A stretch of DNA of 64,000 nt, taken from the NCBI GenBank assembly GCA_944376205.1, contig CALWBV010000006.1, positions 7,868-71,867 of the forward strand. The letters run 5' to 3'. The position numbers and the translations under genes were made by a program. The stretch comes from an uncultured Christensenellaceae bacterium. Its GTDB lineage: Bacteria; Bacillota; Clostridia; Christensenellales; UBA3700. Under the pieces are notes generated by a model. It saw only the letters and a list, made by a program, of their open reading frames with translations, did not search any database and was not told the DNA's origin. Numbering within the stretch: the first letter of the stretch is position 1; each line of letters begins with the position of its first letter. Positions 3,169-50,890 of the stretch are shown one piece after another.

Positions 3169-3984
3169 TTATCGCACTTCGATGTCAAGCGCCTCTTTGT
3201 AAACTTCATCCCTCGTAAGCGAGTTGGCTTTGGCAACCTGTTTGACGGCGCTCTTTTTATCCATACCGTTTTCAATAAGACTAATGAGCTGTTCCTTTAT
3301 GCTGCCGCAAGGCTTTTGCCGTATTTTTTCGCCGCACTCGACTATAAGCACGTATTCGCCTTTTGCTTCGCCCTCAAACCCCGCCGCCAACGTGGTGACG
3401 ATATGTTGTTCGTGAATCTTTGTAAGTTCTCTTATAATGTGCAGTTTTCTGTCGCCGAGACGTGAATACAGATAAGCGATATCCTTGTCGACGTCATAAG
3501 GAGAACTGTAAAAAACCAAAGAAGTCGTTATGTCCTTAAAGGGCAAAACAAGCGAATCTTTATCCTTGGTTTTTGACGGCAAAAAACCTATGAAAGTAAA
3601 CACGGGTTGTATTATGCCGCTCAATGCCATTGCCGTAGTCAGCGCAGTGGGTCCGGGGATAACGGTTATGTCAACTCCCTTCTCCGACAGTCCGTTGACC
3701 ACTACCGCCCCCGGATCGGAAACGGCAGGCATACCTGCGTCTGTTACAAGTGCAACGTCCTTACCCTCGCAAAGCATTGCGTATATTTTGTCTACGCTCT
3801 CCTTTTCGTTGAATTTATGGCAGGCAAACAAAGGTTTTTTTATATCGTAATAGTTGAGAAGTTTGAGCGAATGACGGGTATCTTCGCAAGCTATCGCATC
3901 CGCTTGTCGCAAAGTATCCAAAGCTCTTTGACTTATATCTCCGAGATTTCCTATAGGCGTACCTACAAGATAAAGTTTTGCCAT
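3169..3984 (-). CDS. rsmI: 16S rRNA (cytidine1402-2'-O)-methyltransferase RsmI
   Basis: KLYLVGTPIGNLGDISQRALDTL...IACEDTRHSLKLL...LVTDAGMPAVSDPG is the RsmI/tetrapyrrole-methylase-fold signature. Start chosen at the second ATG (3984), 7 nt after GGAGAG. Confidence 0.9.
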   Translation of the reverse strand: MAKLYLVGTPIGNLGDISQRALDTLRQADAIACEDTRHSLKLLNYYDIKKPLFACHKFNEKESVDKIYAMLCEGKDVALVTDAGMPAVSDPGAVVVNGLSEKGVDITVIPGPTALTTAMALSGIIQPVFTFIGFLPSKTKDKDSLVLPFKDITTSLVFYSSPYDVDKDIAYLYSRLGDRKLHIIRELTKIHEQHIVTTLAAGFEGEAKGEYVLIVECGEKIRQKPCGSIKEQLISLIENGMDKKSAVKQVAKANSLTRDEVYKEALDIEVR

Positions 3985-4181
3985 GGCCATTCTCTCCTTT
4001 TGTTGTCCATTAACAATATAACACATTATCTTATCCGAAGCAATCGCTATTAAAAGTAAAATGCAATTTTAACCGCTTTCTTTCTTTACATAATTTTGCC
4101 TTAATGTTATAATAAATTGTAATAGATACATACTGTCTTTATTGATACATTCGGAATATACTGTACACGAAAGAAACGATT

Positions 4182-4904
4182 ATGAGCGGATATTACAGAA
4201 AAATTCTTAATTCGGTTATATGTTTTTACGTCTGCGTCATCACCACAGTGATGATAATATTTTTCGTATATTACGACGCCTACGGCAATTATATGTCCAC
4301 TATGCTCAAACCCAAGACCGAAAAAGCGCAACACTATGCCGAACTCAACAAAACCGCCGAACACAACTGGACGGTCTTCTTCGGCGATTCTCTCACCGAA
4401 CTTTGCGACACACAAAAATATTATCCGGAAATTCCCAATCACAACAGAGGTATCTCGGGCGATACCACTCAAGGTATGCTCTCTCGTCTTGATGACAACG
4501 TAATCAATATCGAACCCTCGACTGTGGTGTTTCTCGGCGGTATCAACGATATAGGTCACGGCACGGCGATAGATACCTTGCTCTCAAATATAGATAAGAT
4601 ATTGGCTCGTATAACCGAATGTCTGCCCGAATGTGAGATACTCGTACAGTCGCTTTATCCCGTAAATCCGCACAAGAAACCCGCTTTTCTCAATGCGGTT
4701 GGCATTCGTACCAACGAAGCCGTACTTTCGGTCAATGCCGTATTGCCCGAAATTTGCAGTAAATACGACGCAACTTATATAAACATACATGACCTTCTTA
4801 CGGACGAAAACGGCAATCTCAACAAACATTATACCGCCGACGGATTGCATATCAATGCCGACGGCTACAAAATCGTAACCAAAGAAATAAAGCGCTATCT
4901 TTAA
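4182..4904 (+). CDS. SGNH/GDSL-family hydrolase with N-terminal membrane anchor
   Basis: The four conserved blocks are present: FFGDSLT, GISGDT, LGGINDI and DGLHIN. Confidence 0.85.
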   Translation: MSGYYRKILNSVICFYVCVITTVMIIFFVYYDAYGNYMSTMLKPKTEKAQHYAELNKTAEHNWTVFFGDSLTELCDTQKYYPEIPNHNRGISGDTTQGMLSRLDDNVINIEPSTVVFLGGINDIGHGTAIDTLLSNIDKILARITECLPECEILVQSLYPVNPHKKPAFLNAVGIRTNEAVLSVNAVLPEICSKYDATYINIHDLLTDENGNLNKHYTADGLHINADGYKIVTKEIKRYL

Positions 4905-6518: not shown

Positions 6519-9017
6519 TTATCTTTTGCGCCAGATACGATATACCTCACCGCCAGCCAACGCAATCATCTTGACAGCATTGGGAGTAATCTCGTCAACA
6601 TATACTTTGAGTTTTTTGTTGACAACCTGACCGTCTTCGATAATGAGGTAGTTTGCATTCTGTACGCCGATACCGCCTTCTCTTATGGAATCGATGGTAA
6701 CAATGTCTCCGTCGTCAAACTGTCCTACGATATCGTCGAGAGAAACAGTGGTCTTGATAAATCTCATGAACTTGTTCTCTTCGGTATATACGTCAGCAAG
6801 CTGTTCTGCAAGTTCGTCGGGAAGCTGCTCTGCCTGTTCGAGAGTTATGGAATCTCTGACAAGATAGCCGTAACCTTTTCTTTCTGCAAGAGTCATTCCT
6901 TCGGGAGAGAGTTCCTCTGTAAAGTCTTTCTCTTTATATCTGGGCTTTTTCTCGAGGGCACAAGCTTCTGCAGTCTTTGCGATGAGTTCTTTTGCCTTCT
7001 TTACTGCGAGTTTGGATCTTACAGGCATGAGCGTAGGAATTTCGACAACACCTCTCTTTTCGCTCATATCCTTGTGGTGATAGTACTTCTCATCGAGAGA
7101 TGCGGGATCGAGTGCAAGGTAGAGTTTGAGAGTCTTGCCGTTGATGACTATTCTCGCCTTGGTCTCACGACTGTGATTGAAGTTTTCCTTGGTCTTGCTG
7201 ATTCTGTTTCTGAATCCGTAAGAAAGGAGTTCGTTTTTGAGTTCTGAATAGAATTTCTTGAGGTCGTCGCTTGCAAGTCTCAATTTCGTCATAAAGGTGA
7301 ATCTGGGTCTTACACTCTTGATTGCACTGATATCCTCTTCTTCCTCGTCTTCCTCATCGTCATCCTCGTCGTCTTCTTCTTTTTGCTGATTCATAAGAGC
7401 TACGATGTTGGTCTCGATATTTGCAAGTCTTTCGTTGATTTCGTCGTCGTTTCTGTTGTCCTCTACGGGCACGTAAACTGTCTGAACGATAGGCTGTTGT
7501 TGTACGGGTTCCTCAACGGGTTCGTCGACAGGTTCCTCAACAGGTTCTTCTACAGGCTCCTCGACAGGCTCGACAACTTCTTCGACTGGTTCTTCCACAG
7601 GCTCGTCAACAGGCTCCTCTATCACTTCTGCTACAGGTTCCTCAACGGGCTCTTCGACGGGTTCCTCTACAGGCTCCTCAATAGGTTCGTCAACAGGTTC
7701 CTCGATAGGCTCTTCGATATGAACTTCTTCTTGAGGTTCTTCGATTTCCTGTTGTTCCTCGGCTGCGAAAACGGGCTTGGATATAACTACGTGCGCTCTC
7801 GTATCTCTCTTGTAGATAGACATCTTGAGCGTGTACTGACAGAGTATCAACCACAATACGCCTATGATTCCGCACGCTATGGCGATATACATATACATGT
7901 AAATTTTGCCGGTAAAATAGTACAACAGCGTGCCTATCGCACCGATTATGAATATGTAAGGCATACAGTCAACAAGGTTTGCTCTGCCTCTTACGAGTCT
8001 TATGAACAAAGATACTACCATCATTACGATTGCGGCAGCCGCAAAAACGAACGTTACGACTACTTCGAGATCGGTTGCGATAAATTCGAAATTCTCAAGC
8101 ATAGGAGATTGCGTAATGATGAATATTATCATGATACCTACGAGTGCAAGCATTACGATAAATGCAGCGTACTTGGTAAATACTACCTTGAAGTACATAA
8201 GAAGCTTGTTGCTGGCACTGTAAACCGCATCGTTTGCCTTCTCTTGTATTCTTACTTTGAATATGGCAATTCTTATCGTCATGAGCACGAGCATTATTCC
8301 CGTAAGCGCAAGCGTCATGATAGCAAGTTCGTTGATAGGCGAGAAGTGTTTGAGAATGACGCATTGCAAAATCATTCCGAAACATACCAACAGTCCTATC
8401 AGCAAGAATGCGTCAAGCGAACAAACTTTCTGACTGCGCATCGTGATAAACGCCCATACGACAAGTGCCGCGCCCATTATCGATACGAGAACGATCATAG
8501 GCACTTTGTGTTCCTGGAAGAAAGAAATACCTGCGCCGTCTGCGATGTCTGCCGCAAAGAATACTACGTAAAGCAAACATGTAATAGGCAAAAACGTGAT
8601 AGGATTGTAGAATTTGAGCAACGAACCGAAGTAAAACGCAACTTTGTTACGCTTTTTCTTCTTGCTGTCGTCTTCCTCTTCTTCTTTTACCTCGTGGCTG
8701 TCGTAAGTCTCATAACGGAGTTCACCGCCGGGACCGTAAGGAAGCTCGTTTTCTTCTTCCTTTTCGGGTTCGTCGATAAAGCCTACGACGGCTTTTTTCT
8801 TCTTACCCTTTTTGCCCTTTGCCTCGGCAAAAGTATCGACGCTCTTTTTCTTCTTTTTGGACTTGTCCTTTTTACCTTCGGCCTGTACTCTGACAATAGT
8901 AGTCTGTTCGGGTTGAGGTTGTGCAACCTCCTCCTTAACTTCGGCTACATTCTCGGGTACTGCCGCAGTATCTAAAGTCTGGTCTGTGTTTTCTGCTTTT
9001 TTCTTGGCTTTTTTCAT
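6519..9017 (-). CDS. Large hypothetical membrane protein: Lys-rich N-terminus, about 8-10 TM helices, (P-V/I-E-E)n acidic repeat, globular C-terminal domain
   Basis: 832-aa ORF. Contains EEPVEEPVEEPVEEPV repeats and the acidic run EEDDEDDDEEDEEEED. The C-terminal roughly 70 aa (VSLDDIVGQFDDGDIVT...KKLKVYVDEITPNAVKMIALAGGEVYRI) resemble the C-terminal module of ribosomal protein uL15. Confidence 0.75.
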   Translation of the reverse strand: MKKAKKKAENTDQTLDTAAVPENVAEVKEEVAQPQPEQTTIVRVQAEGKKDKSKKKKKSVDTFAEAKGKKGKKKKAVVGFIDEPEKEEENELPYGPGGELRYETYDSHEVKEEEEDDSKKKKRNKVAFYFGSLLKFYNPITFLPITCLLYVVFFAADIADGAGISFFQEHKVPMIVLVSIMGAALVVWAFITMRSQKVCSLDAFLLIGLLVCFGMILQCVILKHFSPINELAIMTLALTGIMLVLMTIRIAIFKVRIQEKANDAVYSASNKLLMYFKVVFTKYAAFIVMLALVGIMIIFIITQSPMLENFEFIATDLEVVVTFVFAAAAIVMMVVSLFIRLVRGRANLVDCMPYIFIIGAIGTLLYYFTGKIYMYMYIAIACGIIGVLWLILCQYTLKMSIYKRDTRAHVVISKPVFAAEEQQEIEEPQEEVHIEEPIEEPVDEPIEEPVEEPVEEPVEEPVAEVIEEPVDEPVEEPVEEVVEPVEEPVEEPVEEPVDEPVEEPVQQQPIVQTVYVPVEDNRNDDEINERLANIETNIVALMNQQKEEDDEDDDEEDEEEEDISAIKSVRPRFTFMTKLRLASDDLKKFYSELKNELLSYGFRNRISKTKENFNHSRETKARIVINGKTLKLYLALDPASLDEKYYHHKDMSEKRGVVEIPTLMPVRSKLAVKKAKELIAKTAEACALEKKPRYKEKDFTEELSPEGMTLAERKGYGYLVRDSITLEQAEQLPDELAEQLADVYTEENKFMRFIKTTVSLDDIVGQFDDGDIVTIDSIREGGIGVQNANYLIIEDGQVVNKKLKVYVDEITPNAVKMIALAGGEVYRIWRKR
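7506..7717 (-). repeat. In-frame 12-nt-period coding repeat (PVEE/PIEE units)
   Basis: The plus strand shows repeated GGTTCCTCNACNGG / GGCTCCTCNACAGG units, which translate on the minus strand as EEPVEEPVDEPIEEP. Confidence 0.85.
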
Positions 9018-48233: not shown

Positions 48234-48971
48234 CTATTTGAAGAAGTCAACAATCTTCTGTTTAATAACCTGCAACTTCCCTTCTATAAACTGTTTGATT
48301 TCACTCTTCTTGGTCTTTTTGAATTCGTCACGCAGTTTGTCGATAAGTTCCTTTTGAATGACCCGATTATTAGCAAATATCTGCTCGGTATTGCCCTTAA
48401 TTTCTATATAGCTTTCTGCGACAAGTTCGCAATAGGCGAGGATGCCCTGCTGAATTTCCGCATCGTACATGCCTTTTTCGAGACTAGCAAAAGCGCACAG
48501 AAGTTCGACGATATTGTCGCTTACCTTGTCATAGAAGTTCTTGCCCGAAATATACTCGGCAATCGCCATATATGCGGCGGTGTCACGGGTGTATTCCTTG
48601 CAAAAGTCTCTGATACATTCCTCAACTTTGGCAAACATGTCTTCGTCGAGCGAAAATACGTTGTCCCAAGTGATTTTCTCAACAACCGTTGCGCCTGAAG
48701 AATAGAGTTTTTTGTTGACAAGTTCGAGAATGTCGGCTTCGCCTGCGACTCCGCTTAAAAACTGGATTTCTTTGGGATAAAGATTGTGATTGGCTTTGCT
48801 CTGGAAAAAGAGTATGGCCTGCAATATCCTGTCAAACATGCGTATGCGATTCTGCGTACTCAAATTGGGATCGACGTTGCGTGCGATATCGCATATCTCG
48901 ACGAGATACTTTGTGATCGCAGAATAGCGCTTATAAAGTTTGAGCCAGATTTTTTCTTTAGCTACTGCCAT
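48234..48971 (-). CDS. Hypothetical all-alpha protein
   Basis: 245-aa ORF with coding-like composition and a GGAG RBS (GGAGGAGTTATG on the minus strand). No family recognised. Confidence 0.6.
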   Translation of the reverse strand: MAVAKEKIWLKLYKRYSAITKYLVEICDIARNVDPNLSTQNRIRMFDRILQAILFFQSKANHNLYPKEIQFLSGVAGEADILELVNKKLYSSGATVVEKITWDNVFSLDEDMFAKVEECIRDFCKEYTRDTAAYMAIAEYISGKNFYDKVSDNIVELLCAFASLEKGMYDAEIQQGILAYCELVAESYIEIKGNTEQIFANNRVIQKELIDKLRDEFKKTKKSEIKQFIEGKLQVIKQKIVDFFK

Positions 48972-49093
48972 AACTCCTCCGTGTATAATTATTTTAATAC
49001 CTCATGAGGTTTTTAGTCAATACCCTTTGAGGTTTTTTAACATTATATTATAACTAAACGCTAAAATAAGCCTAAAAAAGCACACCGTCGGAA

Positions 49094-49138
49094 TTTTGTA
49101 CAAAATTATTCTACATCATTCGATATTTTTGTACAAAA
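49094..49138. promoter_or_regulatory. Pair of perfect TTTTGTACAAAA palindromes (33 bp centre to centre)
   Basis: Perfect 12-mers at 49094-49105 and 49127-49138, upstream of the minus-strand 245-aa gene. Confidence 0.6.
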
Positions 49139-49239
49139 TTCGCCAAGGGGTCAATTTAATGCACAAAATAAGCTTTTTAGAAGTGTACAGTCTAGCCGTA
49201 ATCCTAATATTTTGTAACATTTTATACGATATGTGTCGG

Positions 49240-49280
49240 TTTTGTATAAAAATTGAAATCTTTTGGAATTTTGTACAAAA
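49240..49280. promoter_or_regulatory. Pair of TTTTGTAYAAAA palindromes (29 bp centre to centre)
   Basis: TTTTGTATAAAA at 49240-49251 (one mismatch) and a perfect TTTTGTACAAAA at 49269-49280. They lie about 115-155 nt upstream of the 130-aa ORF. Confidence 0.55.
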
Positions 49281-49394
49281 ATAGCCTCAAAACGCTTGTG
49301 TATTCACAAATGTTATGATATTATTTTAACAGTGAAAGTAAAAAATTATTAATTTTCTTGCAATCCCAAAATAAAAAGGTTATGGAGGTCAAAA

Positions 49395-49787
49395 ATGCAA
49401 ACCGCTGAAGGTGTCAATTTGCATTTTTTAGCAAAAAGAGCCAAGACCCACTTGTGCCAAAAGCCTCAATTTGCGCAGGTATGCGCAGAACATTATTGTC
49501 CTTGTTGTAGCTGTGAAAAAGAATTCGAAAGCTACTATAAGGTGGTAAAACTCCTCGTCAGCGAAGAGACCGTTTACGATCCGATAGCACGACTTGCAGG
49601 CAGAGAACTGGCAGAATTACCCAATTCGTCCGAAAAACAACGTATTATTCTGCAAACTTGCAATATGTATGCTACCATGCGAAACAGATTGAGACGTGAT
49701 TTGCTGTCTGCAATGCGCCAGAACAAGCTTTTGTCTGTAGGAGATATCTGCGTAAATCCACAATACGTACTTAAAAAGCTCGGATAA
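49395..49787 (+). CDS. Hypothetical small Cys-rich protein
   Basis: 130-aa ORF with RBS GGAGG 7 nt upstream (ATGGAGGTCAAAAATG). It has a C-x8-C-x4-CPCCSC cluster and a basic C-terminal half. No family recognised. Confidence 0.55.
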   Translation: MQTAEGVNLHFLAKRAKTHLCQKPQFAQVCAEHYCPCCSCEKEFESYYKVVKLLVSEETVYDPIARLAGRELAELPNSSEKQRIILQTCNMYATMRNRLRRDLLSAMRQNKLLSVGDICVNPQYVLKKLG

Positions 49788-49908
49788 TCGTTCAATATTA
49801 TCCTGTTTGTCTTAACCGCCTTAAGGGGGGCTGAATTTTTATACGAATTTTTAGCTTGAATGCGACAAATTTCGACTGTCTTTTACACGATTTTGTCGTT
49901 TATGCTGT

Positions 49909-49953
49909 TTTTGCACAAAATTCGAGTGCAAAAACCGCTATTTTTGTACAAAA
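49909..49953. promoter_or_regulatory. Pair of TTTTGYACAAAA palindromes (33 bp centre to centre) abutting the queT promoter
   Basis: TTTTGCACAAAA at 49909-49920 (one mismatch) and a perfect TTTTGTACAAAA at 49942-49953, 5 nt upstream of the -35 element. Confidence 0.55.
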
Positions 49954-49958
49954 ATCGC

Positions 49959-49987
49959 TTGTCAAATCTTAATGCAGATGATATAGT
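49959..49987 (+). promoter_or_regulatory. Putative queT promoter
   Basis: TTGTCA, 17-nt spacer, TATAGT. Confidence 0.5.
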
Positions 49988-49994
49988 TGCGTAT

Positions 49995-50035
49995 GGAAGG
50001 TTTTCGGAAAACACTTCCAAATAAAAAAACCGAGG
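49995..50035 (+). promoter_or_regulatory. Candidate preQ1-I riboswitch
   Basis: GGAAG-GUUUUCGGAAAACA-CUUCC hairpin followed by the A-rich tail AAAUAAAAAAACCGAGG. The loop UCGG can pair with the tail CCGA (H-type pseudoknot) and sequester the RBS GAGG. The layout matches Bacillus preQ1-I (AGAGGUUCUAGCUACACCCUCUAUAAAAAACUAAGG). It sits directly upstream of queT, a classic preQ1-regulated gene. Confidence 0.6.
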
Positions 50036-50041
50036 TATTTT

Positions 50042-50890
50042 ATGAATAGTTTTTCAACCAAAATGCTGGCTCGTGCCGGCATTATCGCCGCTCTTTATGC
50101 GGCATTGACGCTAACTCTCCCTGCATTATCATTCAACAGTATTTTGCAATTCAGACCCGCCGAAGCGCTTACGCTTTTGCCGCTTTTGTACTCTGACAGC
50201 ATAATAGGACTGTTTTTAGGTTGTTTTATAGCCAACCTTCTCTCGCCGTACGGCGTACCCGATCTGGTTGTGGGAAGTCTGGCAACTCTTATTGCCGCAA
50301 TCTGCACTTATTTTGTGGGCAAACTTATCAAAAACCAAAAACTCAAAGTCTTTGTCGGCGGTCTTTTCCCCGTGCTCATCAATGCGATATTCCTGCCTCT
50401 CATGTGGTTTTTAATGGACAGCGAAGCGGGTTATTGGGCAAGTTTCGGCTCCATGCTCCTCACGCAGGCTATCTACGTGTACGTGCTGGGCATACCTTTC
50501 TATATGCTCTTGAAAAAACTTCAGTCAAGCGGCGTTGCCATTTTGCAAGAGAAAATCGCAGGCAACGTTACGGAATTTTCAAGGACAGAAAAATTCATGG
50601 CTTTTCTCTCGTCCGTAATCCCCGTATTCGGCGTCGTGCTTACTCTCAAGACAAAACAGTCGTGTAAAAACGTTCTCCTTGCCCAAAACGCAAACACCGA
50701 CTCTGTCGATTCGACTACCGAATGCGAAAATGATCAGACTCAAGCCGTTGCACACGCCAAAGAGCTCGGCTCTTTCTTCGGCACCGCTACTGCGATATGC
50801 GCTTTTTTATGGACGATAGTCATTGCGTTTGTCGTCTATACGCTTATGGTCAAGTACGGCTATGCGTCCGCTCCGTTTTTTATTCAGTAA
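50042..50890 (+). CDS. queT: QueT queuosine-precursor transporter family protein with a C-terminal extension of about 110 aa
   Basis: ARAGIIAALYAALTLTLPALSFNSILQFRPAEALTLLPLLY...GLFLGCFIANLLS...GSLATLIAA...VLINAIFLP...QAIYVYVLGIPFYMLLKKL matches QueT end to end. Two further hydrophobic segments follow. Confidence 0.85.
   Translation: MNSFSTKMLARAGIIAALYAALTLTLPALSFNSILQFRPAEALTLLPLLYSDSIIGLFLGCFIANLLSPYGVPDLVVGSLATLIAAICTYFVGKLIKNQKLKVFVGGLFPVLINAIFLPLMWFLMDSEAGYWASFGSMLLTQAIYVYVLGIPFYMLLKKLQSSGVAILQEKIAGNVTEFSRTEKFMAFLSSVIPVFGVVLTLKTKQSCKNVLLAQNANTDSVDSTTECENDQTQAVAHAKELGSFFGTATAICAFLWTIVIAFVVYTLMVKYGYASAPFFIQ

Follow-up and report, generated by a model that had tools for sequence, protein, structure and literature searches.

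The 64,000-nucleotide stretch of DNA analysed here, referred to as the window, spans positions 7868 to 71867 of contig C6 in an assembly of an uncultured Christensenellaceae bacterium; the assembly (called G000) comprises 1.79 Mb (1,788,128 bp) with 41% G+C in 28 contigs. The region of interest contains two uncharacterised genes, p245 and p130, which point away from each other, and downstream of p130 the gene queT, which encodes the S component of a queuosine-precursor transporter of the energy-coupling factor (ECF) type. Between these genes are found six copies of a short palindrome, arranged in three pairs (Table 1; start sites and promoters are throughout predicted from sequence, and distances from site centres are computed from the predicted -35 boxes). 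The original prediction, made from the letters of the window, was that the palindromes look like an operator set for one dimeric regulator that controls a small local regulon. Comparison with related genomes supports this assignment, except that the centre of the system is p130, that the pairs facing queT and p245 are clade-specific and that p245 is not the regulator.

Table 1. Features of the p245-p130-queT locus in window coordinates; the distance is that from the site centre to the -35 box of the gene named.
Feature	Position	Strand	Description	Distance to -35 (bp)	Conservation and remarks
p245	48234..48971	-	245-aa protein, predicted all-helical, divergent from p130		
p245 promoter	48991..49020	-	TTGACT, 18 nt, TAAAAT		10/12 scan matches; hexamers kept in four species
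Site 1a (p245 side)	49092..49107		AATTTTGTACAAAATT, perfect 16-bp palindrome	79.5 (p245, proximal)	Invariant in G011, G015, G009
Site 1b	49125..49140		ATTTTTGTACAAAATT, 33 bp from 1a	112.5 (p245, distal)	Invariant in G011, G015, G009 along with TTCGCCAA flank
Possible weak third site	49157..49168		TAATGCACAAAA, 3 mismatches, 30 bp past 1b		GCA-AAAA part kept in clade alignment
Site 2a, putative distal p130 operator	49238..49253		Core TTTTGTATAAAA, 1 mismatch	50.5 (p130, distal)	
Site 2b, putative proximal p130 operator	49267..49282		AATTTTGTACAAAAAT	21.5 (p130, proximal)	Core element of the system
p130 promoter	49296..49324	+	-35 TTGTGT (49296-49301), 17-nt spacer, TG-extended -10 TATTAT (49319-49324)		
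p130	49395..49787	+	130 aa, basic (pI 8.9), mostly helical (predicted)		Uncharacterised family
Terminator-like hairpin and T run	49818..49841	+	After p130		GGGGGGCTGA-TTTTTAT part kept in G011 and G015
Site 3a	49907..49922		Core TTTTGCACAAAA, 1 mismatch	44.5 (queT, distal)	Exact in G011 and G015
Site 3b	49940..49955		ATTTTTGTACAAAAAT, perfect 16-bp palindrome	11.5 (queT, proximal)	
queT promoter	49959..49987	+	TTGTCA, 17 nt, TATAGT, TG before -10		10/12 scan matches; hexamers kept, spacer differs
queT leader	49994..50041	+	GGAAG...CTTCC hairpin, A-rich tract, CCGAGG including ribosome-binding site		
queT	50042..50890	+	282 aa; QueT domain (residues 9-159) and C-terminal extension		

The 12-mer TTTTGTACAAAA is found exactly at 49094, 49127, 49269 and 49942 and with one mismatch at 49240 and 49909. 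Rescanning the window returned the same positions as originally reported, all inside 860 bp, with no further copies at up to one mismatch in the 64 kb. It also reproduced the start-to-start spacings of 33, 29 and 33 bp and the 5 nt that separate the third pair, which ends at 49953, from the TTGTCA of the queT -35 box, which begins at 49959. The 12-mer is a perfect palindrome, as are the 16-mers at 49092 and 49940, and in a profile built with 36 sites of related genomes the consensus becomes 16 bp long, A-W-TTTTGTACAAAA-W-T (symmetrised, AWTTTTGTACAAAAWT). A literature search for the 12-mer returned primers and unrelated sequences only.

All four exact copies in the 1,788,128-bp genome are found at this locus; by our own arithmetic, the chance that four random copies fall inside 860 bp is about 4 x (860/1.79e6)^3, i.e., roughly 5e-10. 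With the locus left out, the genome contains 34 one-mismatch and 369 two-mismatch copies, and both counts are inside the ranges (8-111 and 213-746, respectively) obtained for ten control palindromes of the TTTTnnnnAAAA / AAAAnnnnTTTT type with TTTT/AAAA arms, of which eight have the same base composition and two a longer T/A run. Near-site pairs 27-36 bp apart are represented elsewhere in the genome by one weak pair only (1 + 3 mismatches, on contig C4). The motif is thus not common in the genome, its near-matches being no commoner than those of the controls, and these counts together with the pair scan rule out a genome-wide regulon with degenerate sites. Avoidance of a restriction site as the reason for the rarity elsewhere is also ruled out, because neither GTAC nor TGTACA is depleted (328 copies of TGTACA observed, 304 expected).

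An exact-pattern search of 30 relatives identified the motif mostly in genomes of the same genus, usually paired 30 or 33 bp apart and each time beside a p130 homologue. The ascertainment bias of this motif-first search was removed with a p130-first search of 23 genus genomes, which are uncultured metagenome-assembled genomes labelled Christensenellaceae, Christensenella sp. or Clostridia. A single-copy p130 is present in 22 of the 23, and in 21 of these 22 it is preceded by a site pair, typically about 131 and 161 nt before the ATG. In 21 of the 22 the distal site is located 29-30 bp above the proximal one and is often degenerate, while a site with at most two mismatches is found at -124 to -153 from the ATG in 20 of the 22. 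The pair is kept although p130 identity between clades drops to 31-46%, and through three different neighbourhoods: FBA-p245 together with queT-bioY-birA (the clade of the window, i.e., G000, G011, G015 and G009), a fused ABC-FtsX transporter together with CysS, and a p245-like gene. Among exact copies, 35/39 (16 genus genomes) are at p130 loci, and no gene other than p130 is invariably found with the motif. Alignments of close relatives give the phylogenetic footprint that the original prediction had proposed as a check: the sites and the promoter hexamers are invariant and the spacers and flanks have diverged. Sites that stay invariant while the spacers diverge behave as protein-binding operators, which we consider them putatively to be.

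This linkage is largely restricted to the genus. Of 401 genomes sampled from the order, the six genus members all have site pairs, as do 7 of the approximately 395 others, where our own estimate of chance occurrence is about 5 and a reversed-pattern control gives 2; in the one of these seven genomes that was compared (G122) the pair is on a different contig from the p130-like gene. Two unplaced metagenome contigs that encode divergent full-length p130 homologues carry a good site at -148 or -161. One genome, G004, has a single, unpaired exact site in a different context (L012) with no p130 detected, which is probably a chance occurrence. The three pairs of the window also differ in their distribution. 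Their positions before three units are as originally described, but only the pair before p130 is general; the other two are limited to a small clade, and 17 of 22 species have a single pair, at a fixed 13-15 nt from the p130 -35 box. The pair before p130 is the general core of the system and, in the reading proposed below, its ancestral unit.

All three flanking genes have predicted sigma-70-type promoters. That of p130 was missed by a consensus scan, as its -35 box matches the consensus at 3/6 positions, and the call rests on conservation: in an alignment of 200 nt of upstream sequence, most of the 22 genus genomes share AAAAC(G/A)CTTG in the -35 region and TG-n-TAT-n-AT in the -10 region. 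In nearly all genus species, 13-15 nt lie between the end of the proximal p130 site and this conserved CTTG. At queT the proximal site is one helical turn nearer the -35 box than it is at p130, while at p245 a weaker -10-like element that is closer to the sites is poorly conserved. The -35 boxes, -10 boxes and predicted starts of the three promoters are all free of sites. From this placement upstream of the -35 boxes, and from the one-turn difference between the proximal sites of queT and p130, we infer that the promoters are activated, or relieved of activation, rather than occluded in the classical way. On the promoter-distal flank of each proximal site, TTTTG(G/T)-n-AA is conserved (window 49260-49282; L016:4960-5015), and the functional unit may be asymmetric and about 22 bp long (TTTTGGnAATTTTGTACAAAA), recurring as a direct repeat every 29-30 bp.

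The p130 proteins are basic (isoelectric point, pI, 8.9-9.75). The AlphaFold model of the window's p130 has a mean predicted local distance difference test (pLDDT) score of 75 and consists of an N-terminal basic helix with an invariant H-LAK-AK-R, a disordered loop, three helices, one of which (residues 79-108) is predicted to be long and arginine-rich, a beta-hairpin and a last helix. An exhaustive profile search identified 46 relatives, most of which are 100-135 aa long and match only the first approximately 100 profile positions. The form with the C-terminal hairpin and helix is found in the genus and on the two unplaced metagenome contigs, whereas the shorter relatives outside the genus are limited in their match to those approximately 100 positions. 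The description of the gene as Cys-rich applies to the window's clade and is not a feature of the family: the Cys/His-rich loop (residues 21-40, window 49455-49514; C21, H33, C35, C37 and C40, plus C30 and C38 in the window) is confined to the clade of four species that carries the additional operator pairs as well. In the model this loop is part of a low-confidence stretch, and it could be a metal or redox site.

From these observations we tentatively propose that the palindromes are operators of one dedicated dimer-binding factor and that p130 is the most likely candidate for it. Each 16-bp site (AWTTTTGTACAAAAWT) would accommodate one dimer, and with about three helical turns (29-30 or 33-34 bp) from one site to the next, a pair of cooperating dimers would lie on the same face of the DNA. 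The pair before the p130 -35 box would be the ancestral unit, to which further pairs would have been added in the window's clade, one facing the divergent p245 and one downstream of p130, where it abuts the queT promoter in this species. By binding its own sites, p130 would regulate itself, in a module that has also taken over the two promoters next to it, and the factor would act positively on sigma-A-type promoters from upstream of the -35 box. The C-terminal p130 extension and the site pairs are both essentially restricted to the genus, and the two unplaced contigs that have the extension also carry a good site; these coincidences favour p130 as the putative binder. The original prediction had also named the neighbouring orphan proteins as candidates, of which p130 remains, without a recognisable DNA-binding domain. 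A role of p245 as general regulator is ruled out by its presence in only 10 of the 23 genus genomes.

Several observations weigh against p130 as the binder. The protein has no match in Pfam, NCBIfam, PHROG or PADLOC at the thresholds used; its sequence profile has no match in the PDB, and Foldseek against the PDB returned nothing at E <= 0.001. In the VIA-align comparison the best Z is 5.4, and the winged helices of E2F-DP and ScpB, at Z 4.6-4.7, are within the tool's stated noise range. The core 12-mer is invariant though p130 diverges to about 31% identity, as would rather be expected of a factor that is encoded in trans and is itself more conserved. The upstream p130 pair has been destroyed in G010, yet a perfect one persists downstream; neither there nor in G009 does a gene follow the downstream pair, a position for which simple promoter activation does not account. 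The window sequence is present in DNA metagenome runs only, mainly from chicken gut. Searches of the ESM Atlas by fold and by feature, and a profile-profile comparison of p130 with the Spo0A_C family, were negative or at noise level. The structure predictions, originally suggested as a check for a DNA-binding fold, yielded no recognisable one in either p130 or p245 (an all-helical bundle, pLDDT 81, with no fold match).

A more far-reaching version of the proposal, which we consider unlikely, sees in p130 the founder of a new family of autoregulators that bind DNA and whose fold is absent from solved structures. The shorter ancestral form would be controlled by Spo0A, often beside pcrA, in most of the order; in the genus the protein would have gained the C-terminal hairpin and helix, and Spo0A boxes would have been exchanged for p130-bound palindromes. 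In the window's clade, the further gain of the Cys/His-rich loop, as a possible metal or redox sensor, and of the extra pairs would then have put queT, which already has a riboswitch-like leader, under p130.

The link to Spo0A derives from p130-family genes outside the genus. In 28 loci from other genera of the order (L023-L050), exact Spo0A boxes (TGTCGAA/TTCGACA) are found upstream of 12, compared to 1.2 expected (P < 1/2000, Markov simulation), while within the genus an exact 0A box precedes p130 in 2 of 22 genomes. Relative to the homologous -35 region, the palindromes occupy the place of the 0A box in a sister genus. These data suggest that the shorter p130-family genes outside the genus are probably members of the Spo0A regulon. 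At 14 of the 28 loci these shorter genes (about 90-140 aa) adjoin a gene for a UvrD/PcrA helicase. The six sites in the window themselves do not contain the core TGTCGAA (TGNCGAA): all of them read TGTACAA, with a change at each of the two CG positions.

The genome encodes a canonical 262-aa Spo0A with the standard recognition helix (contig C7) and also a 113-aa protein that consists of the Spo0A DNA-binding domain alone (PF08769, 64.9 bits; G000:C2:58254-58592, L078:1489-1830). This orphan Spo0A_C paralog is found in 21 of the 23 genus genomes at 65-95% identity and, in a 201-genome sample of the order, in 33 non-genus genomes; its recognition helix (IDKNIQN-IS-AW, where Spo0A has VERAIRHAIEVAW) is conserved across the order. 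A CATACAT element, preceded at about 17 nt by ATATAT, is reminiscent of a sigma-E-type promoter. A literature search on stand-alone Spo0A DNA-binding domains found nothing relevant.

Nearly as likely as binding by p130 is a reading in which the operator array is the same but a regulator encoded elsewhere binds the sites, with p130 as its main target. One candidate is the 113-aa paralog, which would act on a variant, palindromic 0A box (TGTACAA for TGTCGAA); as a binder, the paralog is a weaker alternative to p130. Such a factor would account for a core motif that is invariant over p130 proteins 30-46% identical, the paralog itself being better conserved. The half-site TTTGTACAAA shares the T-rich flank and the TGT start of the extended Spo0A box TTTGTCGAAA and the place just upstream of a sigma-A-type -35 box. 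It differs in the two central bases, CG being replaced by AC; moreover, the element here is a perfect palindrome rather than a directional 7-mer, and there is no genome-wide set. Among non-genus genomes, TTGTACAAAA upstream of a p130-like gene is accompanied by the paralog in 4/5 cases, compared to 5/23 for those without it (Fisher p ~0.03, for genomes that are not independent). On the other hand, the paralog occurs with its conserved recognition helix in the 33 genomes outside the genus, yet the pairs are essentially genus-confined. It was not found in G008 or G221 despite their perfect sites, which is weak evidence as these genomes are 91-92% complete, and its own gene has no palindrome upstream. 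A regulator with one distant locus as its only target is also rarer than a locally encoded one, and any other conserved regulator would fit as well as this paralog.

The extra pairs raise another alternative, i.e., that the sites bind a protein in a structural role, as DNA-loop anchors around p130, as a 3' transcript roadblock or as a centromere-like or nucleoid-protein cluster. On the p245 side, the 33-bp pair is confined to the four genomes of the window's clade and is located at least 80 bp from the only clear p245 promoter. A 33-34-bp pair downstream of p130 is found in these four genomes and in G010, in each case after the p130 terminator (in the window, the terminator-like hairpin at 49818-49841). 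Pairs about 640-700 bp from each other stand on both sides of p130 in the window's clade. G009 has neither queT nor its promoter, and bioY, which is convergent, ends within about 45 nt after the perfect pair (L014:4225-4270). G010 keeps a perfect downstream pair (L019:5015-5059) that is followed only by a terminator and by an RsgI-like gene ending convergently, and two genes of Xre-type helix-turn-helix (HTH) proteins are found where the upstream p130 pair has decayed (L019, about 3662-4268). Because the downstream pair is kept without queT in these two genomes, it is not simply a queT operator; it is kept for a reason besides starting queT, looping to the upstream pair and a 3' roadblock being possibilities. 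As an explanation of the whole array, a structural role is nevertheless improbable: a single pair at a fixed distance from the p130 -35 box, as in most species, is a signature of promoter control, the locus has no partition ATPase, recombinase or replication gene in its vicinity, and it is chromosomal with neighbouring housekeeping genes in conserved order. That the palindromes are recently duplicated or neutral AT-rich repeats without function would fit their AT-rich sequence in AT-rich intergenic DNA and the genome count, which is 4 where a Markov model predicts 3.1. This explanation is effectively refuted by conservation: the copies cluster in 860 bp, they are exactly conserved across species with strongly diverged flanks and p130, and their spacers are not conserved, so that the pairs are not recent duplicates of a longer segment.

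Control by a paired operator, as proposed here, places the module in a familiar class, and the interest is in its binder and in the apparent replacement of Spo0A control. The closest parallel in geometry is NrdR, which controls the nrd genes in most bacteria through tandem 16-bp palindromes (acaCwAtATaTwGtgt) at ribonucleotide reductase operons. Both systems have two conserved 16-bp palindromes about three helical turns apart in the promoter region, where NrdR binds cooperatively, but the sequences differ, and the system described here has no nrd gene, is limited to one genus and one locus and has its sites not over the promoter but upstream of the -35 box. The CodY box AATTTTCWGAAAATT, which is 15 bp long and defines a large, degenerate regulon, is also an AT-rich palindrome with AATTTT / AAAATT arms; it differs in length (15 vs 16 bp) and in an inner C/G swap (TTTTC-W-GAAAA vs TTTTG-TA-CAAAA), and near-matches here are at control level. 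The AraR operator of Bacillus, ATTTGTACGTACAAAT, shares by sequence the TTTGTAC / GTACAAA arms but has four more central bases and thereby another half-site spacing, and there is no GntR/LacI-type regulator or arabinose gene at the locus here. Small autoregulated genes for repressors or activators, e.g., switches of the phage or Xre type, resemble p130 in that paired palindromes between divergent genes accompany a small gene whose regulon extends to its neighbours only. The differences are that p130 is without an HTH or known DNA-binding signature and that the sites are upstream of promoters, not over them.

The locus thus presents an orphan operator, i.e., a perfectly conserved, genome-unique cis-element with defined geometry that is tied to a small-protein family absent from Pfam, NCBIfam and PHROGs. 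If p130 binds these sites, it would represent a new DNA-binding family in uncultured gut Christensenellaceae-like Clostridia, and in the course of evolution a promoter would have passed from Spo0A, the sporulation master regulator, to a dedicated factor. In this species, queT would also receive a protein-level input besides its riboswitch-like leader, such that uptake of queuosine precursors answers two signals. For a binder encoded at another locus, the sites are still an exact bait.

The identity of queT itself is clear (PF06177, E = 4.8e-36, 124.6 bits at a cut-off of 33.7), and full-length homologues are present in G011 and G015. The protein has a C-terminal extension of about 120 aa (residues 160-282), which is conserved over the full length in G011 and G015 (78% identity over 282 aa) and is for this reason a real part of the protein in that clade. 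The leader is 100% identical in G000, G011 and G015, while the promoter spacer just upstream differs. By eye, it has a GGAAG/CTTCC stem, a UCGG loop that can pair with the CCGA beside GAGG and an 11-nt A-rich linker; the loop-tail pairing would cover the ribosome-binding site, and the three species are identical and so give no covariation. The candidate preQ1 riboswitch originally placed here is not supported by any Rfam model, RF00522 included: a cmscan of 49950-50060 with the full set of Rfam models (E up to 10) returned no preQ1 match, and a whole-genome search with RF00522 gave six matches below the gathering cut-off of 39 bits, none at the queT leader. The fold energy is not unusual relative to shuffled sequences (z = -1.3). 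The leader may be a divergent preQ1-type element, as the RF00522 model cannot score the pseudoknot.

The stretch that leads from the p130 terminator to the third pair contains, at 49863-49898, an inverted repeat, CGACAAA ... TTTGTCG. G011 and G015 have another inverted repeat at that place (CGTGCA ... TGCACG), i.e., a compensatory pattern. The loop of the repeat in the window contains the Spo0A-box-like TTCGACT, and the exact TTCGACA is present there in G011, G015 and G009.

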